Virus genome (UHGV): UHGV-0103155
Origin: a virus
Length of the DNA stretch: 39,184 bases
Reading direction: 5' to 3' (one strand)
Shown: positions 2,305-33,740 of the stretch, in pieces
Layout of the letters: each line of letters opens with the position of its first letter
Position numbering within the stretch: position 1 is the first letter of the stretch
The notes under the pieces: generated by a model
The model's input: the letters and a program-made list of their open reading frames with translations, nothing else
Database searches by the model: none
What the model was told of the DNA's origin: nothing
Translations under genes and position numbers: made by a program

Positions 2305-5061
2305 TTAGCTACTTTCAAGCATTGCAAGACGTGATTCTATTTTTTCGATTCTTCTACGCAAATAAGCTGACTCAAGCCATAAACACTGGTCAGTACGGAT
2401 ACCCCACCTATTTCCAGCATTGCAAACCAGAGTTCGCTCTTCTGTTTCGTATTCTTCTTCCATCTCAATTTCGACGCCATCCACAACTTTAGTGATCATC
2501 CTTACCGCCATCACTGGCGCGTATTTATCATCCCATTCATCGTAACAGAGAAGGCCAAATCTGGTTCCATCAATCCCATGCGCGAGGAAAGTGTCTCTCA
2601 CTTGTTGTGCTATAACACCAAAATGCCAGCGGGCACCATCTCCCTTTTCCCTGACGGCATCAAGCCAGCGAAAAGCTACAATCCTGATATCTCCCCATGC
2701 ATCCAGAATTGCATCACCTTCATAACCACGAGACATATACAAGCTGAGCTCACTTGTACTAATCGGTTCACTTTTTTCTCTACCATCTGATGTGTTTATC
2801 GAACCGTTCGCAGAATAAACCTGTGCCCATCTAAATGATGGTGCACCAAGAGATTTGCTGTTATCAATAATTGGTGAAAAATTACCTTTAATGGCAATAT
2901 TTCCAGAGTCGCCGAATATATTAATAACTGCAGAGTCATCACCATGGTTTTTTACGCTTAAGTTTCTTGATGAAATATTTATATCTTTGTTATATCCACT
3001 AACATTAATCCATCTTTTACCATCAATGTGATACCCGTAAATATTTCCGTCTGATTGTTCGTCAGGTGACTCTCTAAGAACAATAGCATCTGCTCCAGAC
3101 GACCATTGTATTTTTGTATCTGTAGGCCTCCAGTTCTTTATAATGAACGAACCATCAGTAAACTCCGTTTTTATTTGTCTATTGTCTACAAATGCGTCTC
3201 TTGGTTTAAACTCACTTGTGTTAACGCTGCTCTGAAGATCAGAAGCAAAAAATCTAAGATTTCCTGTATAACCCTGAGTCTCGGTCAGGTTATACGCAAT
3301 CATAATTCCATTTTCAAACTCAGATGATGTTATTTTAACATCACGGCAATCACCAAAAATGCAATTTCCTTTATCAAATGTTGTTTGAGCTTTGAATTTA
3401 TCAAACCTTAAATTACGAACAGGGAAACCATCAACCTCTAATGCAAAGGATGCAGGAAGGCCAAAGTATTCTGATGGCTTACCTGATGTATGATCAAGAG
3501 TAGTGGCTACTGTATTCTCAAAAACAGTCCCGCTAAAATTATTACCAATTGACGGAAACCTGATTACACTTATTGTACCTTGTATTTCAGGAGAAATACC
3601 AGATAGTGTGATGTTAGCTCCATCAAATGATGCATCTGAATACGTATATACTGATTCACTGCCAGCAATTTTAAACTGTTTAACTGAAGTTATTCTCATC
3701 GACTTTTTATGTTTAAATGTCACTGAGCTTTCAGTATTACTTACAAGATCAATCTGAGGGCTATTCCTTATCGCGATCCCTGACTGGACATAAACGTTAT
3801 TAAAGTGCGTTTTTTCAGGATTTCCCTTCATTGAAAGGCTCCCGTCATTTTCTGTCAGTAGTAGTCCTTTTACCCTCCAATAGCCGACAATCTGTACGTT
3901 ATCAATAACTGAATCACAGCTATCGTATACATGCAACCCTATATCCCAGTCATCACCCAATGAATAAGAATCAGGGTTATTGTATCCTTCAATACCATTT
4001 TTACTTACCATTATTCTCAGGTTGCGTAACTGTGATGCCCTGTTGATACTAACAGCTACGCTCATGGCTTTTGGTGTAGCAGGAGTAACACCTACAGAAT
4101 CTTCATTTGTAAACTCAGTGAACTTACAAGATATCCCTTCAACAATTTTAACTGGTCTTTCATTAGAGATGTTAAAAAAATATTTGTTTTTTTCTCCATC
4201 ACCAGTAAATACAAGATGGGTTCCTTTACTCCAACTTTTTAATAATCTTTCAGGCGCTGGTCTATATGTATCCCAATAATCAATGCCATCACCAATTAAA
4301 GACACTCCAGGAGGCACATCTATGTTCTTAGAAATCATCCATTTACCTGCAGGTATTCTAACGACACTTGCACCAGAATTTATCGCATTAATTAACCATT
4401 CAGACGCATCAACTTCAAAATTTAATGCAGCATATCTTTGCTCAAACGGAACAAAATCAAGAGCGTTAACGTTATCCCGCATCTTATCCTGGAACGTTCG
4501 GTATACTGCTCCAGAACCATACTGAATAAACCAACCAAAACCACCAACAACTCCGGCGATTGCAGCATCAACATAATTGCGCATTGATCGATTATTTACA
4601 GCATCCTGCTCAAGTGATGGATCTGCAAGGTTAGAAATTTTGTTTTGCTTTGCATCGTAATATTTTGCAAGCAAAGATGGTTTCATCAATGCACGTCTGA
4701 ACCATCCAAAACATTGCTGGATCAGCATCGTCAGGTAGTCAAAGGCATCTTCATGCACTTCGGGGAAAAATTTCCCCTGATTGCGAAGGTCTGTCTCCTG
4801 CACCACATCAAGCACACGATCTATCGTAATTCGCCAGCCAGCAGCAAGCGGAGACGGAAGAACCACTGAACCGCCACTATAAGTGCCCGCCCCAGTTACC
4901 GTATAACCGGTATCCAGAACCAATTCTGTTACGTTCCCGTTCAGGTCAGACACCTGAACAACCAGGTCGGATTTTTTGAAAATACGGAAGGTATACGGAA
5001 ATGATGTCGTAGCGCCGTTACCGGTGTATTCGTTGTGGTCAACTTCGGTTGAGACCGTCAT
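2305..5061 (-). CDS. Tailspike/tail fiber receptor-binding protein with C-terminal intramolecular-chaperone-like domain
   Basis: 918 aa; N-terminal virion-anchoring type segment (…YTGNGATTSFPYTF…), long Ser/Thr/Gly/Asn-rich central region, C-terminal about 160 aa beginning SDGREK. Confidence 0.8.
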   Translation of the reverse strand: MTVSTEVDHNEYTGNGATTSFPYTFRIFKKSDLVVQVSDLNGNVTELVLDTGYTVTGAGTYSGGSVVLPSPLAAGWRITIDRVLDVVQETDLRNQGKFFPEVHEDAFDYLTMLIQQCFGWFRRALMKPSLLAKYYDAKQNKISNLADPSLEQDAVNNRSMRNYVDAAIAGVVGGFGWFIQYGSGAVYRTFQDKMRDNVNALDFVPFEQRYAALNFEVDASEWLINAINSGASVVRIPAGKWMISKNIDVPPGVSLIGDGIDYWDTYRPAPERLLKSWSKGTHLVFTGDGEKNKYFFNISNERPVKIVEGISCKFTEFTNEDSVGVTPATPKAMSVAVSINRASQLRNLRIMVSKNGIEGYNNPDSYSLGDDWDIGLHVYDSCDSVIDNVQIVGYWRVKGLLLTENDGSLSMKGNPEKTHFNNVYVQSGIAIRNSPQIDLVSNTESSVTFKHKKSMRITSVKQFKIAGSESVYTYSDASFDGANITLSGISPEIQGTISVIRFPSIGNNFSGTVFENTVATTLDHTSGKPSEYFGLPASFALEVDGFPVRNLRFDKFKAQTTFDKGNCIFGDCRDVKITSSEFENGIMIAYNLTETQGYTGNLRFFASDLQSSVNTSEFKPRDAFVDNRQIKTEFTDGSFIIKNWRPTDTKIQWSSGADAIVLRESPDEQSDGNIYGYHIDGKRWINVSGYNKDINISSRNLSVKNHGDDSAVINIFGDSGNIAIKGNFSPIIDNSKSLGAPSFRWAQVYSANGSINTSDGREKSEPISTSELSLYMSRGYEGDAILDAWGDIRIVAFRWLDAVREKGDGARWHFGVIAQQVRDTFLAHGIDGTRFGLLCYDEWDDKYAPVMAVRMITKVVDGVEIEMEEEYETEERTLVCNAGNRWGIRTDQCLWLESAYLRRRIEKIESRLAMLESS

Positions 5062-5165
5062 GTTAAATCTCCAGATAGTCGCAGCACCCGTTGCGCCGCA
5101 TATCTGGTTATTCTATTACCTGAAAAACCACATATGGATAGAAAGACTGTAAATACGAATAGATA

Positions 5166-5180
5166 TTACCTTTCGGGTAA
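5166..5180. promoter_or_regulatory. Palindromic operator-like site TTACCTTTCGGGTAA
   Basis: Perfect TTACC-N5-GGTAA upstream of LexA box and small antirepressor-type gene. Confidence 0.45.
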
Positions 5181-5217
5181 TTTGCAAAACGTGCTGGATA
5201 GCAAACAAATTATTTGC

Positions 5218-5237
5218 TACTGTATAAATATACAGTT
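5218..5237. promoter_or_regulatory. LexA box (TACTGTATAAATATACAGTT)
   Basis: CTGT-N8-ACAG with AT-rich spacer, near-consensus SOS box, about 20 bp upstream of the ATG at 5257. Confidence 0.7.
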
Positions 5238-5256
5238 ATTACATGGAGAAGATAAG

Positions 5257-5514
5257 ATGCAGCAGTATCACTATCCACTGGAAGACGGATTTACCGAAAG
5301 GATTCACACGCCGGGAGGCGTCAGGTCACTGGTGGAGGGATCGCACTTGATGAAATTACTCCGGGATCTCGATAAGGATGGATTTAATGTCGATGGCCCA
5401 CTTGCCGAACTGACTGCACTGATTAACTACGTCACCAGCTCACAGATGTCTATGCAGGATCTACAAACACATCTCGACTATTGTGCCGAACAATTACGAA
5501 AACAAACCAGATAA
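5257..5514 (+). CDS. Small antirepressor-type protein (C-terminal domain of the downstream antirepressor alone; Tum/Gifsy-antirepressor-like context)
   Basis: 85 aa from internal ATG; clearly similar to the C-terminus of the 5830-6540 product; LexA box immediately upstream. Confidence 0.55.
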   Translation: MQQYHYPLEDGFTERIHTPGGVRSLVEGSHLMKLLRDLDKDGFNVDGPLAELTALINYVTSSQMSMQDLQTHLDYCAEQLRKQTR

Positions 5515-5545
5515 GGTTTGCAATTACCAAGTGGAGTGCTTATAT

Positions 5546-5560
5546 TTACCTTTGAGGTAA
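5546..5560. promoter_or_regulatory. Palindromic operator-like site TTACCTTTGAGGTAA
   Basis: Perfect TTACC-N5-GGTAA, itself flanked by inverted repeat GGAGTGC/GCACTCC. Confidence 0.45.
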
Positions 5561-5651
5561 ATTTACAACGCACTCCTCTTATGCCATAGTAATCGGGCAC
5601 TGGCAAAATCCAGTGCCGGGATTGGCGTCCCGGGTTACTAAGTGGCGCATA

Positions 5652-5680
5652 CCACGCCAGACGTGGTTTTTTTATGCGTT
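5652..5680 (+). terminator. Rho-independent terminator
   Basis: Stem ACCACG/CGTGGT with 5-nt loop followed by T7-8 run, after the small antirepressor gene. Confidence 0.6.
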
Positions 5681-5829
5681 AAGCACAGCTATATCCGAAT
5701 TATGGTGGGCTGGGCAGGGGTCCGAAAGGACGCCGGTACCACTTAGGCCGGTACGCCAACCTTGTCCAGTTCACCACCAGTAATTGGCGTTGCGGTGGTG
5801 ATTAAAATCACTAAGTGGAGATAACCACC

Positions 5830-6540
5830 ATGGCTAATGCTCAAACTGCCATCTTCAAATTTGAATCTGTTAACCCTATCCGTTCCATCATTATCGATGG
5901 CCAACCATGGTTTGTAGCCCAAGACGTTTGTAGTGCGCTGCGTATCCAAAACGTCACCCAAGCACTTGAAAAACTGGATGATGATGAAAGGTCTATGTTC
6001 AACATAGGGCATGAACATCGTGCAATTTTTGACAGCCGAGTAAAAGAGATCAACATCATCTCCGAGTCAGGCCTCTACACACTGATCCTCCGCTGCCGCG
6101 ACGCAGTGACACCAGGCACTATCCCCTACCGCTTTCGTAAATGGGTTACAGGTGAGGTTCTTCCTCAGATCCGCCGCACCGGAAGTTACATTAAAAACTC
6201 GCTCCCGCAGGAAGAACGCATAAAGATGGTTGCCGACCAGGTAGCCAACGCCACGGCGTCAGCAGTAATGCAGGCGATGAAGATAGAGAACAAAACCTAC
6301 AGCGCCCCGCTGAAGCCCGGCTACCGCAGCCTGATTCACTCGCCGTCTGGTGTTCTCGGCCTGACGGAGAACTCACTGCTGATGAATCTGCTGAACCAGT
6401 TACAGGACGACGGGCACGACGTATCGGGCGCGGCGGCGGAGCTGACCACCATGTTCTGCTACATCGTCGGTGTGAGTAAATGCCTGCGTGATATCCAGAC
6501 CCACGCGGAATACATCAACGACAAAGCAGGGTTCTTCTGA
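5830..6540 (+). CDS. Antirepressor, Bro-N domain family with Ant-like C-terminal domain
   Basis: N-terminal region resembles Bro-N/phage antirepressor domains; C-terminal domain paralogous to 5257-5514; GGAG before ATG. Confidence 0.75.
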   Translation: MANAQTAIFKFESVNPIRSIIIDGQPWFVAQDVCSALRIQNVTQALEKLDDDERSMFNIGHEHRAIFDSRVKEINIISESGLYTLILRCRDAVTPGTIPYRFRKWVTGEVLPQIRRTGSYIKNSLPQEERIKMVADQVANATASAVMQAMKIENKTYSAPLKPGYRSLIHSPSGVLGLTENSLLMNLLNQLQDDGHDVSGAAAELTTMFCYIVGVSKCLRDIQTHAEYINDKAGFF

Positions 6541-6610: not shown

Positions 6611-6625
6611 TTACCTCAAGGGTAA
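6611..6625. promoter_or_regulatory. Palindromic operator-like site TTACCTCAAGGGTAA
   Basis: Perfect TTACC-N5-GGTAA about 60 bp upstream of the 6685 start. Confidence 0.45.
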
Positions 6626-6684: not shown

Positions 6685-7317
6685 ATGAGAACAAATACAA
6701 CAAGAAAAGCGATGCCATACATTATCCCAGAAGCAGATTTCGATAGAAAACTGAACATGTCTGAGAAGAACACTAGTCACACCGAAAGCTACTTAGCGAA
6801 AGGTGTGGTTGATTTCGTTCTTCCGGGATTCACAACACCTTATGGTTATCGCCTTGTAAAATCTTGTAATGGCGATCATTACAGAATGATTACTACCAGC
6901 GATACTCCAGAAACGGTGTATGCGGTTAAGTTAATCTTTCGGGAAGATATCGTCGAAGCCAAAAGAACATGTACGCAGATCATGGTATGGCGTACGCCTA
7001 ATGTTATTCATGACCGTGCTGTTCATGGTTTGCCTCAGATTTTTTTTCAGTTCTTCCTAGAGCAATATGCGATCGTTGTATCTGATGAGCAACAAACAAT
7101 CGATGGGAGAAGATTCTGGGAAAGAATGATTTCTTGGGCTATAAACACCCCAGGATATAATGTATACGTTTCAGATGGCTCTGAAGAAGATAGACCTCTT
7201 AGCTTCATGACATCATGGGATGATTTCTATAGCCAGTGGGCTGATTTCTGTTGGGGCAGTGATAAAGATGTGCATACCCACAGACTACTGGTTATAAGCA
7301 AAGATAAACTGCATTAA
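6685..7317 (+). CDS. Hypothetical protein, AT-rich single-gene cargo (moron)
   Basis: 210-aa ORF with strong GGAGGA RBS, own upstream operator-like site and downstream terminator; Trp/Phe/Tyr-rich; no family recognised. Confidence 0.6.
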   Translation: MRTNTTRKAMPYIIPEADFDRKLNMSEKNTSHTESYLAKGVVDFVLPGFTTPYGYRLVKSCNGDHYRMITTSDTPETVYAVKLIFREDIVEAKRTCTQIMVWRTPNVIHDRAVHGLPQIFFQFFLEQYAIVVSDEQQTIDGRRFWERMISWAINTPGYNVYVSDGSEEDRPLSFMTSWDDFYSQWADFCWGSDKDVHTHRLLVISKDKLH

Positions 7318-8208: not shown

Positions 8209-10683
8209 TTATTGCGGAGTGACATCCTGTGGTCGCCACCAGTATGTCTGGTTAAACTCTTTCTTCGAACGTTGCTCCATTTTACGTAAATAGCCTGGTG
8301 AAAAATACTCCTGCATCTGGTTAAAGATCATGTGATCGAGAGCCGCCTTCAAGTACCAGAGATTCGCACCAGGCATCAAACCTTTCCCCAGCTTCACCAG
8401 ATCACCACCAGTCTGCTCACTCTTCCCTTCCACAGCATTTAACGGTATGCCCTGAGCAATCTTCACTACGTCATCAACCAGACCAGCTACCGGGCCAAGC
8501 ATCGACGCCAGCGCGCCGCTTCCGTACCTAGTGTGATCTGACAATAAAAAGTCACCGTAAAGGCCAAGACCACCACCTTTCAGTAGAGCACCAAGCCAGA
8601 ATTTTGCGGCATCTTCTCCTGTCATCTCTCGAGGATTACGACCAGACGCAAGGTCGTTAAGTTGCTGCGACAAAGCGCCAAGAATGGTCGTACTGGCAAT
8701 AAACGTCGCAATATATGCCGCACGCCCACCAGCAGACGGCATACCCATAGCGCGTGACCAGTGACGCATAACAACCGAGATAGGGAACGATTTAAACAGG
8801 AAAACACTTCTCGTTAATTCACCTTTCCATGTTCCACGCTGAATACCAGAACCGGTTATCAGTTGCTCACGTGCTCCCGGTGTAATAACAGCCATATCAA
8901 CTTCTTCAGTTACGGCACCGAGCAGTTTACGCATTGCCTCAAATTTCACGCGTTCAGGCTCACCAAGATGTTTAACTGCTGAATCAGGGATACGCATAAT
9001 GCTTTCCGGTGTCAGCATCATATTATTACCGTTCCCCCAGTCCTCCTGTTTCGCCAGCTTCCATACGCTCCAGTCTGTGTCAGTAATCCCTTTGCTTTTC
9101 AGGATACGAAAATCAGAGTCATCGAGGCTACGAAGGTCTGGTGTCCGTGACACTACTTCTCCCAGGCTTCCCATCATGGTTACGCCATAGGCGCGCTTGT
9201 GCGCATCTGACCATGCTGTAAGCCCACTGGCACGCATTACCGCCGTTGCCGCCCAACGAGACACTGACGGCCCCATATTATCCATCGCCCAGCGGTTAAC
9301 GCTGCCAAGTAGAGATTCCATCGCCAGACCAGCGCGGCGCGCCCGCGCAAGTTCTGTACGGTTCGTTGGGTCCATAGCTTCAAGCTGGTTGCGGAATAAC
9401 TGGTTCATTGGAAGGTTGGTAACCTTCGCAGACAGATACATGGTTCCAAGATCAGAGAACGATGACAGCAACGCGGATCCGAGTCTGCTGGCAACCAGCC
9501 AGTTGCGGATATTGTCAGACCATCGCGCGATGTGCGGATTCGCTACAGGCTGTGTCTTTCCGGAAATAAAGTTGTACAGATTCTCTGTGTTGTTCGCCAG
9601 CCGCTCGACTTTACCGGTTTTACTCGGGTTAGCTGTTGCCGTTTCTGCCTTCACCTGATCAAGAAGAGAGCGGAAAACATGATCGGGGTTTGGGCCATAT
9701 GTTTCCACCAGTGCAATATCTTTACTGATACCTTCCAGGTGACCGACCATGATTTCCCATAGAGAGCGATCGCCATAAAGTTGCTGATATTGCAGATAGG
9801 AATCTGCATCTTTGAAATGTATCTGTCGTGATGCATTACCACGGTTAGCACGTGCGCCGGAAATTCGCATTCCGGTATCAGTAAGCTTATTCAGCCCACC
9901 AGTAGCGATCGTGTTATAAGCCTCTCCAAGAAATGAAGACAACTCGGCATCGTTCATCAGTTGTCCATCGGCTCGGATATAATATTTGCGATCCAGCTTA
10001 CCTATAACATCGCTAACCCACTTATCCTTTGATACTGCCCCAACCTTTTCCATAGAATGATGTTGAGGGATCCCCCAGTTTTCGAGATAGCCAATGTCCC
10101 CACCAGCATCATTAAACCGGCGGCGCAGCAGCTCTGTAACTTCTCTCCACGCCTTAGCACCGTTTCTTGCTTTAGCATTGCCAGTATTTTGCCCCCGCAT
10201 TTCATATACCAGGTCACGTACGCCCGCTTCATCTTCAAACAGACCAAAAAAGCGAGGATCAACTGCTTCGAATGCCTCCTGCAATTGACTCAATGCATAA
10301 TCACGGGTGGCTTTTGTTCTGGATTCAACAGAGAGGAAATTAGATTTACCGTCTGCATTAAAAGCTATAGTACGGTTAAGAGCGCCAAGTTTCCCATCAG
10401 CCCCTTGATAGCTATTGATAAATTTATCCAATCTCTGACGCGCGGCTATAGTGAGAGCCACACGACGTTTCTTTAATGCCGCTTCTCGCTGTAATTCTTC
10501 AGATGCCAATTGTGCTGCTCGATATAGCCGCTCTGATTCGGAAAGTTGTCGCCACGATATAGGGTCATCACGAGCAATGGAGCGCATATTTCGATAAATG
10601 CGGTCTTCAATGTTCTGTATTTCTCGCGCCGTTAACGTGCGCTGCGCCGCCTGCTGGACCGCTTGTATACATTCCTGTCTCAT
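8209..10683 (-). CDS. Large internal virion / DNA-ejection protein
   Basis: 824 aa, one of three consecutive large ORFs between tail-tube genes and tailspike, position equivalent to T7 gp15/gp16 core proteins. Confidence 0.55.
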   Translation of the reverse strand: MRQECIQAVQQAAQRTLTAREIQNIEDRIYRNMRSIARDDPISWRQLSESERLYRAAQLASEELQREAALKKRRVALTIAARQRLDKFINSYQGADGKLGALNRTIAFNADGKSNFLSVESRTKATRDYALSQLQEAFEAVDPRFFGLFEDEAGVRDLVYEMRGQNTGNAKARNGAKAWREVTELLRRRFNDAGGDIGYLENWGIPQHHSMEKVGAVSKDKWVSDVIGKLDRKYYIRADGQLMNDAELSSFLGEAYNTIATGGLNKLTDTGMRISGARANRGNASRQIHFKDADSYLQYQQLYGDRSLWEIMVGHLEGISKDIALVETYGPNPDHVFRSLLDQVKAETATANPSKTGKVERLANNTENLYNFISGKTQPVANPHIARWSDNIRNWLVASRLGSALLSSFSDLGTMYLSAKVTNLPMNQLFRNQLEAMDPTNRTELARARRAGLAMESLLGSVNRWAMDNMGPSVSRWAATAVMRASGLTAWSDAHKRAYGVTMMGSLGEVVSRTPDLRSLDDSDFRILKSKGITDTDWSVWKLAKQEDWGNGNNMMLTPESIMRIPDSAVKHLGEPERVKFEAMRKLLGAVTEEVDMAVITPGAREQLITGSGIQRGTWKGELTRSVFLFKSFPISVVMRHWSRAMGMPSAGGRAAYIATFIASTTILGALSQQLNDLASGRNPREMTGEDAAKFWLGALLKGGGLGLYGDFLLSDHTRYGSGALASMLGPVAGLVDDVVKIAQGIPLNAVEGKSEQTGGDLVKLGKGLMPGANLWYLKAALDHMIFNQMQEYFSPGYLRKMEQRSKKEFNQTYWWRPQDVTPQ

Positions 10684-24262: not shown

Positions 24263-24299
24263 TTGACATTTAACGCACAAATTATTACCTTTCAGGTAA
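24263..24299 (+). promoter_or_regulatory. Promoter (-35 TTGACA) with overlapping operator-like site TTACCTTTCAGGTAA
   Basis: Consensus -35 hexamer followed about 17 bp later by AT-rich -10 region overlapping a perfect TTACC-N5-GGTAA palindrome. Confidence 0.45.
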
Positions 24300-24621: not shown

Positions 24622-24698
24622 GTGGCATTAGCTCAGTTGGACAGAGCAACCGCCTTCTAAGCGGTTGGTCGCAGGTTCGAATCCTGCATGCCACGCCA
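24622..24698 (+). tRNA. tRNA-Arg (anticodon UCU)
   Basis: Cloverleaf readable: acceptor GTGGCAT/ATGCCAC, D-loop AGCTCAGTTGG, anticodon loop CTTCTAA, T-loop GGTTCGAATCC, 3' GCCA. Confidence 0.9.
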
Positions 24699-24790: not shown

Positions 24791-24857
24791 GACGCCATTG
24801 CGATGACTTCATGCTGTAAACCAGTACAGCCACGGAAGGCATAACTCATTGCTTCCA

Positions 24858-24901: not shown

Positions 24902-25273
24902 ATGAGTGACAAAGACATTGAATCTGAAATTCAGGCTAAAGGTTTAGCCGCGCCGCGCGTTACGCCAGACCATATCGAGAGCATTATTGCTCAGGAGGCA
25001 TATTTCACAGCAGAAGATGGTGTCTTTGGCGTAGCCATAAAAGCGAAACATACTGGCGGAGAGGTAAACTACCAGCCGCACGAATCACTTTCTCTGCTGA
25101 CGTTCTGCGTTCTGGTGCTGCGCAACGGCTTCACCGTCACCGGAGAGAGCGCCTGTGCAAGCCCGGAAAACTTTGATGCGGAAATTGGTCGGAAGATTGC
25201 CCGGCAGAATGCTGTAAACAAAATCTGGATGCTTGAAGGTTACTTGCTGAAGCAGAAGTTAAGCGAGCAATAA
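24902..25273 (+). CDS. Gp49-like phage protein (function unknown)
   Basis: 123 aa with AAGGTGAG RBS; sequence recalls the Gp49-type small phage proteins; opposite strand to flanking structural genes. Confidence 0.5.
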   Translation: MSDKDIESEIQAKGLAAPRVTPDHIESIIAQEAYFTAEDGVFGVAIKAKHTGGEVNYQPHESLSLLTFCVLVLRNGFTVTGESACASPENFDAEIGRKIARQNAVNKIWMLEGYLLKQKLSEQ

Positions 25274-32617: not shown

Positions 32618-32848
32618 TCATGAGTAGAAGAAGTACGCCAGTTCTGCTTTTGAGCGCAGCCATCGTCTTGTTTTACAGGCTTTAAAAAGCCCATTCATCA
32701 ATACCTTACCTGGCATTTTGCGCTTACCTGTTAAGTGAGTCTGGATATAGTGACTCGTCGTTCCGGCTTCCTGTGCGAAGGCTTCACGCTCATCCGGAGT
32801 AAGTGCAAGCCAGTGTTTTTTGAAATCGAAATGTCCGTTATCGCTCAT
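32618..32848 (-). CDS. Cro-like regulator (YdaS-type HTH)
   Basis: 76 aa, divergent from repressor gene; sequence pattern of YdaS/Cro-like small HTH proteins. Confidence 0.55.
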   Translation of the reverse strand: MSDNGHFDFKKHWLALTPDEREAFAQEAGTTSHYIQTHLTGKRKMPGKVLMNGLFKACKTRRWLRSKAELAYFFYS

Positions 32849-32884: not shown

Positions 32885-32947
32885 TCACCCATAAGGTAAC
32901 AAAAATCAAGGATAGTTACCCATGGGGTGCATTTACCTGTTGGGTAA
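32885..32947. promoter_or_regulatory. Immunity-region operator cluster: three TTACC-N5-GGTAA-type sites between divergent cro-like and repressor genes
   Basis: Sites near 32885-32899 (1 mismatch), 32916-32930 (2 mismatches), 32933-32947 (perfect); first lies between a TTGATT -35 and -10 of the leftward promoter. Confidence 0.55.
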
Positions 32948-33002: not shown

Positions 33003-33587
33003 ATGAAAAGTATCCAGGACGTCCGCAGGCAAAATCTCAACGACTTGATCGACCGTGAATTCAATGGTGTTCAGACGCGGATGGCAGAAAAACTTGGAAC
33101 TCAGGCAAATCTGGTAAACCGCTGGGCTCTTGGCAAGAAGGTTATCGGCGACCAGGTTGCGCGAAAAATTGAAGCTGCCGCCAATAAACCCCGTAACTGG
33201 CTTGATATCGATCGCTCGCTTTCTCAGGAAGGTTTTCAGCCTGTCGGCCCAAGCGACATTGGTCAGCTGGCGGCTCACAACCTGGAACGCTGGATGAGCG
33301 AAAGCCGCGACCTTTCAACACAGGGAAAACTTCACCGCGCATCCGGCGTCGCCCAGGTGACAATCAGCCGCCTGTTAAACAATGAGGTCAGCGTTTCCAT
33401 TTCCACCCTGGAGAATGTTGCATCCGCATTCGGGCGTCACGGCTATGAATTACTGATTCACCCGCACGACCCTGCGACTATCAACTATGACCGCTCGCGC
33501 TACGCATTGTTACCCGAAACAGAGAAGGCAAAGATCGAAAGTTACATTGAATTTATCATCAGCCAGAACGAAAAAAACAAACAATAA
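33003..33587 (+). CDS. Prophage repressor with two HTH domains, no S24 peptidase domain
   Basis: 194 aa; two XRE-like HTH segments; no Ser/Lys autocleavage motifs; divergent from cro-like gene across operator cluster. Confidence 0.7.
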   Translation: MKSIQDVRRQNLNDLIDREFNGVQTRMAEKLGTQANLVNRWALGKKVIGDQVARKIEAAANKPRNWLDIDRSLSQEGFQPVGPSDIGQLAAHNLERWMSESRDLSTQGKLHRASGVAQVTISRLLNNEVSVSISTLENVASAFGRHGYELLIHPHDPATINYDRSRYALLPETEKAKIESYIEFIISQNEKNKQ

Positions 33588-33644: not shown

Positions 33645-33720
33645 TTACCTTATGGGTAATTTTTTTAACTCATATCTATTGACATCAAACCAGATACGCA
33701 TAATAATTACCTCAACGGTA
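33645..33720 (+). promoter_or_regulatory. Rightward promoter region (TTGACA -35) with two operator-like sites (TTACCTTATGGGTAA, TTACCTCAACGGTAA)
   Basis: Two perfect TTACC-N5-GGTAA palindromes bracketing a TTGACA hexamer upstream of the recombination operon. Confidence 0.45.
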
Positions 33721-33740
33721 ACAGACCGAGGTAACAAATT

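Follow-up and report, generated by a model that had tools for sequence, protein, structure and literature searches.

A predicted SOS-LexA-Ant-Rep switch and a C4 RNA-associated second antirepressor gene in a phiV10/epsilon15-like temperate podophage

How can a prophage respond to DNA damage when its repressor carries no signature of a self-cleaving peptidase? The question is raised by a locus at positions 5165-6540 of the UHGV virus genome UHGV-0103155, a stretch of 39,184 nucleotides that was analysed at its full length (hereafter the window). The window is a phiV10/epsilon15-like temperate podophage: the region around the locus shares 92-98% identity with members of the genus Uetakevirus that infect Escherichia (the phiV10/epsilon15 group), including phiV10, vB_EcoP_ZX5 (ZX5), phiv142-3 and TL-2011b. 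The locus forms a short plus-strand island inside the minus-strand late region, between the tailspike and injection-protein genes, and holds a small antirepressor gene (ant) followed by a gene for a larger, Bro-N-type antirepressor. From sequence comparison we hypothesize, with a probability of about 0.82, that this is an anti-immunity locus whose two antirepressor cassettes would both act on the repressor Rep (33003-33587); the same figure applies to the SOS route by which LexA, Ant and Rep would be linked in this phage, a reading that rests on orthology and conservation.

The first cassette is built around ant (5257-5514, plus strand), which runs from an ATG at 5257 to a stop at 5514, is preceded by GGAG 8 nt upstream, and encodes an 85-amino-acid antirepressor. 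Judged by its sequence, the product is an ortholog of the Ant protein of Salmonella phage SPC32H: it matches chain 5D50_E of the Protein Data Bank (PDB), entitled "Anti-repressor protein", over residues 2-84 (E 4.1e-47), PDB 5D50 being the Rep-Ant complex of SPC32H; it is 88% identical to the product of SPC32H and SPC32N, whose gene is annotated "ant" in GenBank; and it is assigned to phrog_450. No Pfam or NCBIfam model covers it, a PADLOC scan was likewise uninformative, and a DUF724 match falls under its cutoff. A word-indexed protein search with Ant returned close stand-alone homologs only, while a full hidden Markov model (HMM) search gathered 62 clusters, a mixture of stand-alone proteins of about 85 residues and C-terminal domains of proteins of 130-319 residues; matches to long repeat proteins in that search (P0156, P0159, P0171) are probably spurious. 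Ant is conserved far better than Rep, the Escherichia coli and Salmonella phages sharing 84-88% identity in the former and 41% in the latter, and the two genes occur together (35 phage records with Ant, 36 with Rep). A longer open reading frame (ORF) of 126 codons that begins at an ATG at 5134 (5134-5514) was weighed as an alternative form of ant and rejected as a mis-called start, because it crosses both a Rep operator and the LexA box and because the solved protein has 86 amino acids; this 126-residue version is also present in databases (for example P0003, with 833 member sequences), its start almost certainly mis-called there too. In Klebsiella phage ST512-KPC3phi13.3 a second small ORF follows ant, and was ruled out as an Ant duplicate at 19% identity.

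The original prediction placed a near-consensus LexA box directly before this ORF, and the box is indeed there: TACTGTATAAATATACAGTT, at 5218-5237, agrees with the consensus at 18 of 20 positions and lies 20 bp ahead of the ant start codon. No other site in the 39 kb of the window has three or fewer mismatches to the E. coli LexA consensus TACTGTATATATATACAGTA, from which this one departs at two positions, and none of 100 dinucleotide-preserving shuffles of the window yielded a match. In an alignment of the sequences upstream of ant the box is retained in phiV10, ZX5, SPC32H and epsilon15, the window's copy aligning column for column with that of SPC32H, and in this alignment SPC32H and SPC32N differ in nothing but the right half-site, which is ACAG in the former and AAAG in the latter. 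Kim and Ryu, in the abstract of a 2013 paper in J Virol, are said to have described SPC32N as differing by one base in the LexA box of ant, with constitutive Ant and a lytic phage as the outcome. Conservation extends to other genera: the full CTGT-N8-ACAG box stands before ant in six of nine enterobacterial prophages, and the other three have the right half-site only. Those that keep the box include prophages of Citrobacter, Erwinia, Pseudocitrobacter, Scandinavium and Buttiauxella; in the prophages of Superficieibacter, Kluyvera and Klebsiella (loci L010, L013 and L014) the left half-site, about 40 bp before ant, reads ATGT rather than CTGT (TATATGTATAT..ATACAGT), which could weaken it as a LexA site or improve it as a -10 element. 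Among 80 IMG/VR loci (L019-L098) selected for an Ant at least 99% identical to that of the window, 74 have the full box before ant (55 of them identical to the window's box), the remainder being mostly cut by contig ends.

Other CTGT-N8-ACAG sites in the window, at 4040, 20272 and 24814, were weighed as LexA boxes and judged to be chance occurrences, having poor flanks and GC-rich spacers and lying in or beside coding sequence. The last of these, CTGTAAACCAGTACAG at 24814-24829, stands about 75 bp upstream of a plus-strand gene of the Phage_gp49_66 family (24902-25273), with flanks and spacer that fit LexA poorly, and is probably fortuitous. Just upstream of the Rep operator that precedes ant, the stretch GACTGTAAATACGAATAGAT (5146-5165) contains a degenerate CTGT-N8-ATAG; two IMG/VR relatives have CTGT-N8-ACAG here, and by its sequence the stretch may be a second, weak LexA-like site in them.

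The proposed target of Ant is the product of rep (33003-33587, plus strand), a presumably non-cleavable repressor of 194 amino acids. Rep matches PDB chain 5D50_A ("Repressor") over residues 1-190 (E 5.6e-42); Pfam places HTH_3 on it in two stretches, with a weak YdaS/HTH match at 21-61, and the Pfam search brought up no Peptidase_S24 even at E<=1, so that the earlier description of a helix-turn-helix repressor without an S24 signature is borne out. It is 99% identical to the repressor of phiV10 and ZX5 and 41-43% identical to the product of the SPC32H gene that GenBank calls rep, of which it is, on this sequence evidence, the ortholog. Identity to SPC32H Rep is unevenly spread (52% over residues 1-75, 52% over 160-190 and 32% over 98-150), and the better conservation of the two ends is what a DNA-reading head and an Ant-binding tail, both conserved, would give. 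Papers that cite the SPC32H work describe the Ant-binding site of Rep as its C-terminal tetramerisation domain (PMC9986798), tetrameric Ant as binding two Rep dimers (PMC9638917), and Ant as being produced after LexA self-cleavage and inhibiting the repressor through protein-protein contact (PMC7380047). The window thus holds each of the elements by which an Ant/Rep system of the SPC32H type can be recognised in sequence: an Ant homolog, a Rep without an autocleavage domain, and a LexA box before ant.

Rep has an abundance of candidate sites in the window. The motif TTACC-N5-GGTAA occurs in 10 exact copies, and sites with at most one mismatch number 15 against 0.72 expected. These are read as Rep operators because their counterparts in epsilon15 coincide with annotated repressor-binding features: in its GenBank record seven exact ATTACC-N5-GGTAAT sites match, one for one, features labelled "protein_bind: repressor", one of which stands before gp19, the ant ortholog. 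Operators flank rep on both sides. OR-like sites (32885-32947) lie between rep and a cro-like gene on the minus strand (32618-32848), at 32885 with one mismatch and at 32933 exactly; an OL-like pair (33645-33721) lies between rep and the recombination operon, at 33645 and 33707, the latter directly after TTGACA-16-TAATAA. Further operators were found at 1937, 24285, 27432/27450, 30540/30602, 32548 and 38961, and operators also precede the terminase, portal-region and Holliday-junction-resolvase units. Most transcription units thus have a Rep operator ahead of them, much as with C1 in P1, a dispersed layout already noticed for epsilon15. The pairs 30540/30602 and 33645/33707 are both spaced by exactly 62 bp, which may suit binding by a Rep tetramer.

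In and beside the antirepressor locus, where such sites had been noted, there are three exact copies, starting at 5166, 5546 and 6611. The first lies within the operator ATTACCTTTCGGGTAAT (5165-5181), which precedes the LexA box by about 37 bp in the intergenic region from which the tailspike gene and ant diverge. The second (core 5546-5560) is bracketed by two tandem promoter-like sites, and the third (6611-6625) overlaps a promoter-like TTGCAG-17-TACTAT that was read by eye, falls below the scan threshold and lies upstream of the gene at 6685-7317. Operators 5546, 6611, 27450 and 33707 each directly follow a -10-like hexamer. An ATTACC-N5-GGTAAT site at about this distance of 37 bp before the LexA box is kept in phiV10, ZX5, SPC32H and epsilon15, and an operator upstream of ant is kept in prophages of Citrobacter, Candidatus Erwinia dacicola, Pseudocitrobacter, Scandinavium, Superficieibacter, Kluyvera and Klebsiella; the Buttiauxella prophage has a merely degenerate operator-like site there, together with its LexA box.

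Taken together, these elements suggest how the phage would be induced. In a lysogen, host LexA bound to the box at 5218-5237 would silence ant; on DNA damage RecA would become active, LexA would cleave itself and ant would be transcribed. Ant, a tetramer in SPC32H, would bind the C-terminal tetramerisation domain of Rep and strip Rep from its operators at OL, at OR and at the other units, whereupon the lytic genes would fire while Rep itself stayed uncleaved. Ant-Rep binding, control by LexA and inducibility by DNA damage are established in relatives, and by analogy the same steps would be followed in the window, which contributes homology, the presence and conservation of the motifs, and the RNA complementarity and covariation described below. 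Induction has been measured in close relatives: mitomycin C raised a ZX5 lysogen, with a Rep 99% identical to that of the window, 100-fold, from 1e7 to 1e9 plaque-forming units per mL (PMC9782041), and the DNA-damaging microcin Mcc1229 induced Uetakevirus prophages 21- to 47-fold.

The second cassette (about 5518-6540) appears to be governed differently. Ant and the Bro-N gene are separated by 315 bp, and within this interval Rfam recognises two RNA elements that the original prediction overlooked: an isrK-type small RNA, or c4-a1b1 element, at 5597-5673 (plus strand; RF01394, 67.7 bits against a gathering threshold of 50), and a C4 antisense RNA at 5698-5781 (plus strand; RF01695, 66 bits against 45), which ends 49 nt before the Bro-N ATG. 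Upstream of both, tandem promoter-like sites on the plus strand (5518-5590) consist of TTGCAA-17-TATATT (5518-5546) and TTTACA-17-CATAGT with a TG element (5562-5590), found by a consensus scan and presumed from it to act as promoters; from the second, transcripts would begin near 5597, which is also the first position of the isrK model. The isrK element closes with an intrinsic terminator (5651-5667) and a T-run and presents two decoy sites, a1 (TTGGCGT, 5622-5628, in the hairpin loop) and b1 (CTAAGTGG, 5638-5645). C4 is predicted to fold at -43.6 kcal/mol with both its a' element (ACGCCAA, 5753-5759, single-stranded) and its b' element (CCACTTAG, 5739-5746, in the loop of the second hairpin) unpaired, and downstream of C4 stand a2 (TTGGCGT, 5784-5790) and b2 (CTAAGTGG, 5811-5818), with which a' and b' are exactly complementary over 7 and 8 nt. 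The b2 site overlaps the Shine-Dalgarno GGAG (5817-5820) that serves the Bro-N ATG at 5830. There is no translationally coupled leader ORF here, since the ORF that begins at an ATG at 5700 within C4 stops at 5744 after 14 codons, a 56-residue ORF with a GTG start ends at 5783, and neither abuts the ATG at 5830.

Covariation among relatives supports C4 pairing. Where the window has CTAAGTGG, CCACTTAG and CTAAGTGG as b1, b' and b2, phiV10, ZX5 and TL-2011b have CTAAAAGG, CCTTTTAG and CTAAAAGG, and further matched sets of all three occur in a Klebsiella phage and a Nitrosomonas element; the order isrK, C4, Bro-N is common to phiV10, ZX5, TL-2011b, Klebsiella and Nitrosomonas. A C4 match was found in 73 of the 80 IMG/VR relatives, and the second cassette is absent from six. 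Across these 73 loci, despite the near-identity of their Ant proteins, at least seven combinations of a and b alleles occur, built from at least four b alleles (CTAAGTGG, CTAAAAGG, CTAGTAG and CTACA(A/G)AGG) and three a alleles (TTGGCGT, TTGGTCT and TTTGCAC). Such reassortment suggests diversifying selection on an immI-type specificity within a single Rep immunity group. The Nitrosomonas oligotropha case (L016, 1867-2791) takes the cassette well beyond enterobacterial podophages: a c4-a1b1/isrK element and C4 there precede a Bro-N protein with a distant Ant-like C-terminus, adjoining a primase-like gene of 810 codons.

It is therefore likely that C4 controls the Bro-N gene. A single transcript would yield the isrK-type RNA, the C4 antisense RNA and the Bro-N mRNA; C4, pairing through a' and b' with a2 and b2, would cover the Shine-Dalgarno sequence and leave the Bro-N gene transcribed and untranslated. 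The isrK decoys, a1 and b1 being identical to a2 and b2, could titrate C4, so that Bro-N protein would be made only where C4 is absent or titrated. By analogy, this cassette most likely works like the immI locus of P1 and P7, in which case an infecting phage or a signal other than SOS could overcome Rep unless C4 of the matching allele were present.

The protein that would be so gated (5830-6540, plus strand, 236 amino acids) joins a Bro-N domain (PF02498, residues 17-112, E 9.5e-20) to an Ant-like C-terminal domain (155-231). The earlier proposal that the 85-residue ORF is paralogous to this C-terminus withstood direct comparison, with 42% identity over 74 amino acids (residues 155-228, E 2e-15), and the last 80 residues also match 5D50_E directly (E 2.2e-13). 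The proposal that the whole module is wired to SOS fared less well: ant has its LexA box, the sole one found by the window scan, but the Bro-N gene has none and is probably gated by the isrK and C4 RNAs, so only half of the module would be SOS-wired. The Bro-N protein is 81% identical to ZX5 ORF4 and, from about residue 75 on, including the whole Ant-like domain, the two are the same. They differ over the first 75 residues (5830-6050 in the window, 2328-2550 in the ZX5 locus L002), with a breakpoint just downstream of b2, so that exchange seems to have involved the C4 allele together with the N-terminal segment. When ORF4 was overexpressed in ZX5, the prophage count fell from 1e9 to 1e6 per mL (about 1000-fold) and repressor transcription by 75% (PMC9782041). 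In phiV10 the counterpart gp23, called an "anti-immunity protein" (L001, 3328-3912), diverges after residue 181 and ends at 194 amino acids, losing most of the Ant-like domain, and is followed by a 30-residue ORF, gp22; it is probably a frameshifted, defective copy. The Bro-N cassette is accessory and not the core trigger, and whether its fusion protein acts on the Rep of the window, as the Ant-like domain would suggest, we consider an evenly balanced matter.

Several considerations weigh against the SOS reading or narrow it. Ant-Rep binding in the window is an extrapolation, given that its Rep is only 41-43% identical to that of SPC32H, and details of the SPC32H ant promoter and of operator use by its Rep come from secondary citations. 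A sigma-70 consensus scan found no promoter in 5062-5256, which makes an overlap between the LexA box and the ant promoter conjectural; several -35/-10 pairs read by eye in this interval were weak, and all were dropped, the E. coli and Salmonella phages having no such pair in common. The second cassette must be dispensable, as the truncation of phiV10 Bro-N in its Ant-like domain and the six relatives without the cassette indicate, and the doubt over the target of the fusion counts on the same side. Lastly, a Rep that fully repressed ant from 5165-5181 would block SOS induction; the operator could possibly mark a second, positive-feedback promoter of ant, control the divergent tailspike gene, or serve as a looping partner for a Rep tetramer. 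The original suggestion of dual control corresponds to the first of these: the operator would serve a second, upstream ant promoter, Rep and LexA would both repress ant, and loss of Rep would feed back positively and lock the switch. The fixed distance between operator and LexA box in all the relatives examined speaks for it, as does the placement of other operators directly after -10-like hexamers, a layout that TAGAAA-17-GATATT followed by ACC (5139-5167) repeats, by eye, at 5166. That putative promoter, however, is weak, went unreported in the scan and has no conserved counterpart in the Salmonella phages; the operator might just as well serve the tailspike gene or looping, and complete repression by Rep would again prevent SOS induction, so that dual control is at present a tentative idea.

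Three more distant readings concern which protein inactivates which repressor. That Rep is inactivated by RecA-stimulated self-cleavage as lambda CI is, the LexA box being incidental, is highly improbable: nothing beyond the default expectation for lambdoid phages recommends it, and it conflicts with the missing S24 domain, with the orthology to SPC32H Rep, whose C-terminus is a tetramerisation domain, and with a LexA box that is conserved across genera and statistically unique in the window. We also think it unlikely that the Bro-N protein is the main antirepressor of induction, as the ZX5 paper assumes, with the 85-residue Ant an accessory or modulator acting, for example, in mixed oligomers with the fusion. 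The effect of ORF4 overexpression in tipping ZX5 toward lysis and the oligomerising domain common to Ant and the fusion would agree with such a role; but SPC32H and epsilon15 carry the small Ant only, six of the 80 close relatives lack the Bro-N cassette, the phiV10 copy is truncated, the LexA box is at ant alone, and the Bro-N gene would be translationally blocked by C4. Somewhat less improbable, though still doubtful, is that the fusion is aimed at the repressors of other resident prophages, or that it has a role other than antirepression through its DNA-binding Bro-N domain. Gifsy and Fels-1 provide documented cases of antirepressors acting in trans on non-cognate repressors (PMC3121763), the C-terminal domain is just 42% identical to Ant, and a comparable c4-Bro-N fusion occurs in Nitrosomonas, where the element is a different one; against this, ZX5 ORF4, which is the same over the whole Ant-like domain, affected the lysogeny of ZX5 itself and cut rep transcription.

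The SOS-LexA-Ant-Rep route is accordingly the reading we retain, and its closest precedent is SPC32H (PDB 5D50, 5D4Z; Kim and Ryu, J Virol 2013; Kim et al., PNAS 2016), which resembles the window in Ant (about 88%), in Rep (41-43%) and in the positions of the genes within an epsilon15-like genome. Its LexA box likewise lies 20 bp before ant, with ATTACC-N5-GGTAAT 37 bp further upstream. Unlike the window, SPC32H has no Bro-N gene, isrK or C4, and its host is Salmonella instead of E. coli; Rep has diverged strongly between the two, whereas Ant and the operator half-sites have not. The logic had originally been likened to that of the Gifsy prophages and of coliphage 186 Tum, and the part of this comparison that stands is a LexA-controlled antirepressor set against a non-cleavable repressor; SPC32H Ant/Rep is the nearer system, and Pfam found no similarity of Ant to Tum/DinI. 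GfoA, GftA and GfhA of Gifsy-1/2/3, Tum of 186 and AntC of N15 all embody the shared logic of a small, LexA-repressed antirepressor encoded outside the immunity region and directed at a non-cleavable repressor (PMC3121763). The window differs from them in having no detectable sequence relationship (the 85-residue protein brought up no Tum/DinI or Gifsy-type match in Pfam, PHROG and NCBIfam, the Gifsy sequences not being compared directly) and no adjacent dinI homolog, and in its Rep, which has two HTH-like domains and a tetramerisation domain where the repressors of that type are DicA/RacR-like.

In the immI locus of P1 and P7, C4 RNA is cut from the leader and blocks expression of the downstream antirepressor; the details of P1 immI used in this comparison reportedly go back to Heinrich et al. 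1995. The second cassette resembles both that locus and the isrK-orf45-anrP locus of Gifsy-1 in having C4 presumably processed from the antirepressor transcript, a1/b1 decoys, a2/b2 sites over the ribosome-binding site, allele-specific pairing that varies between close relatives, and a repressor operator at the promoter region of the operon. It departs from them in that C4 covers the Shine-Dalgarno sequence of a leader gene in P1 and Gifsy-1 (icd and orf45, respectively), whereas b2 in the window covers that of the antirepressor itself, and in that the antirepressor has an SPC32H-Ant-like C-terminal domain and has for a neighbour a distinct antirepressor under LexA control. The downstream antirepressor gene of Gifsy-1, anrP, is driven by the isrK promoter and is transcribed but untranslated until IsrK acts in trans (PMC4825925). 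In Salmonella, IsrK is raised by stationary phase and by low Mg2+.

The position of the locus had been compared with P22 immI, and as regards the map the comparison is sound: as in P22, an antirepressor locus lies among late genes beside the tailspike gene. The tailspike gene here (2305-5061, minus strand, 918 amino acids) has a counterpart that is called tail fiber in the phiV10 annotation and tailspike in that of epsilon15, and the injection-protein gene on the other side (8209-10683, minus strand, 824 amino acids) corresponds to phiV10 gp20 and, by position, to epsilon15 gp17. In regulation the locus is nearer to P1/P7 immI, control in P22 being by sar, arc and mnt and in the window by LexA and C4. 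An Rfam scan of the window found no sar RNA (RF00262), though sar was detected in the same slot of TL-2011b, and no Arc or Mnt was identified in the window, no search having been aimed at them. Besides ant and the C4/Bro-N cassette, TL-2011b carries a P22-type ant, an Arc-like repressor gene and sar RNA in this slot near the tailspike gene (L017, 5519-6703), and so combines three antirepressor systems in one locus.

The SOS-LexA-Ant-Rep reading is thus supported for a system that is known and not new: structural and genetic work on SPC32H has already solved the switch, and what the window adds is an ortholog from E. coli and no new biology. The practical gain is better annotation of ant. Matches to the module occur in 535 of 5426 complete E. 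coli genomes (about 10%), where RefSeq labels ant "hypothetical protein"; the ZX5 paper, the sole paper on an E. coli relative, credits antirepression to the Bro-N gene and makes no mention of LexA or the 85-residue gene (PMC9782041). Recognising ant together with its LexA box explains why mitomycin C, quinolones and bacteriocins that damage DNA elicit a response from these prophages. A lead of greater interest is the C4-gated antirepressor with an Ant domain and polymorphic alleles, which could set the outcome of superinfection between otherwise homoimmune gut E. coli prophages. We tentatively propose, as a possibility short of an expectation, that phiV10-like prophages have a two-key anti-immunity locus in which two antirepressors share a Rep-binding domain, one released through SOS and LexA and the other through C4 and IsrK, and in which reassorting alleles give heteroimmunity of the P1/P7 style within one Rep group. 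If so, a phage with a different C4 allele could break the Rep immunity of a resident relative, and cues other than SOS that act on isrK could induce the prophage.

Three features lie at or beyond the margins of the locus. The slot after the Bro-N gene is variable in relatives, with other ORFs in ZX5 and a YafO toxin gene in TL-2011b. In the window, the gene at 6685-7317, with its own Rep operator over a promoter-like site, encodes a protein of unknown function (210 amino acids, phrog_1349) for which Pfam, NCBIfam and PADLOC gave no match. A tRNA-Arg gene (anticodon TCT) is encoded on the plus strand at 24622-24698, opposite the late genes and adjoining the Rep operator at 24285.

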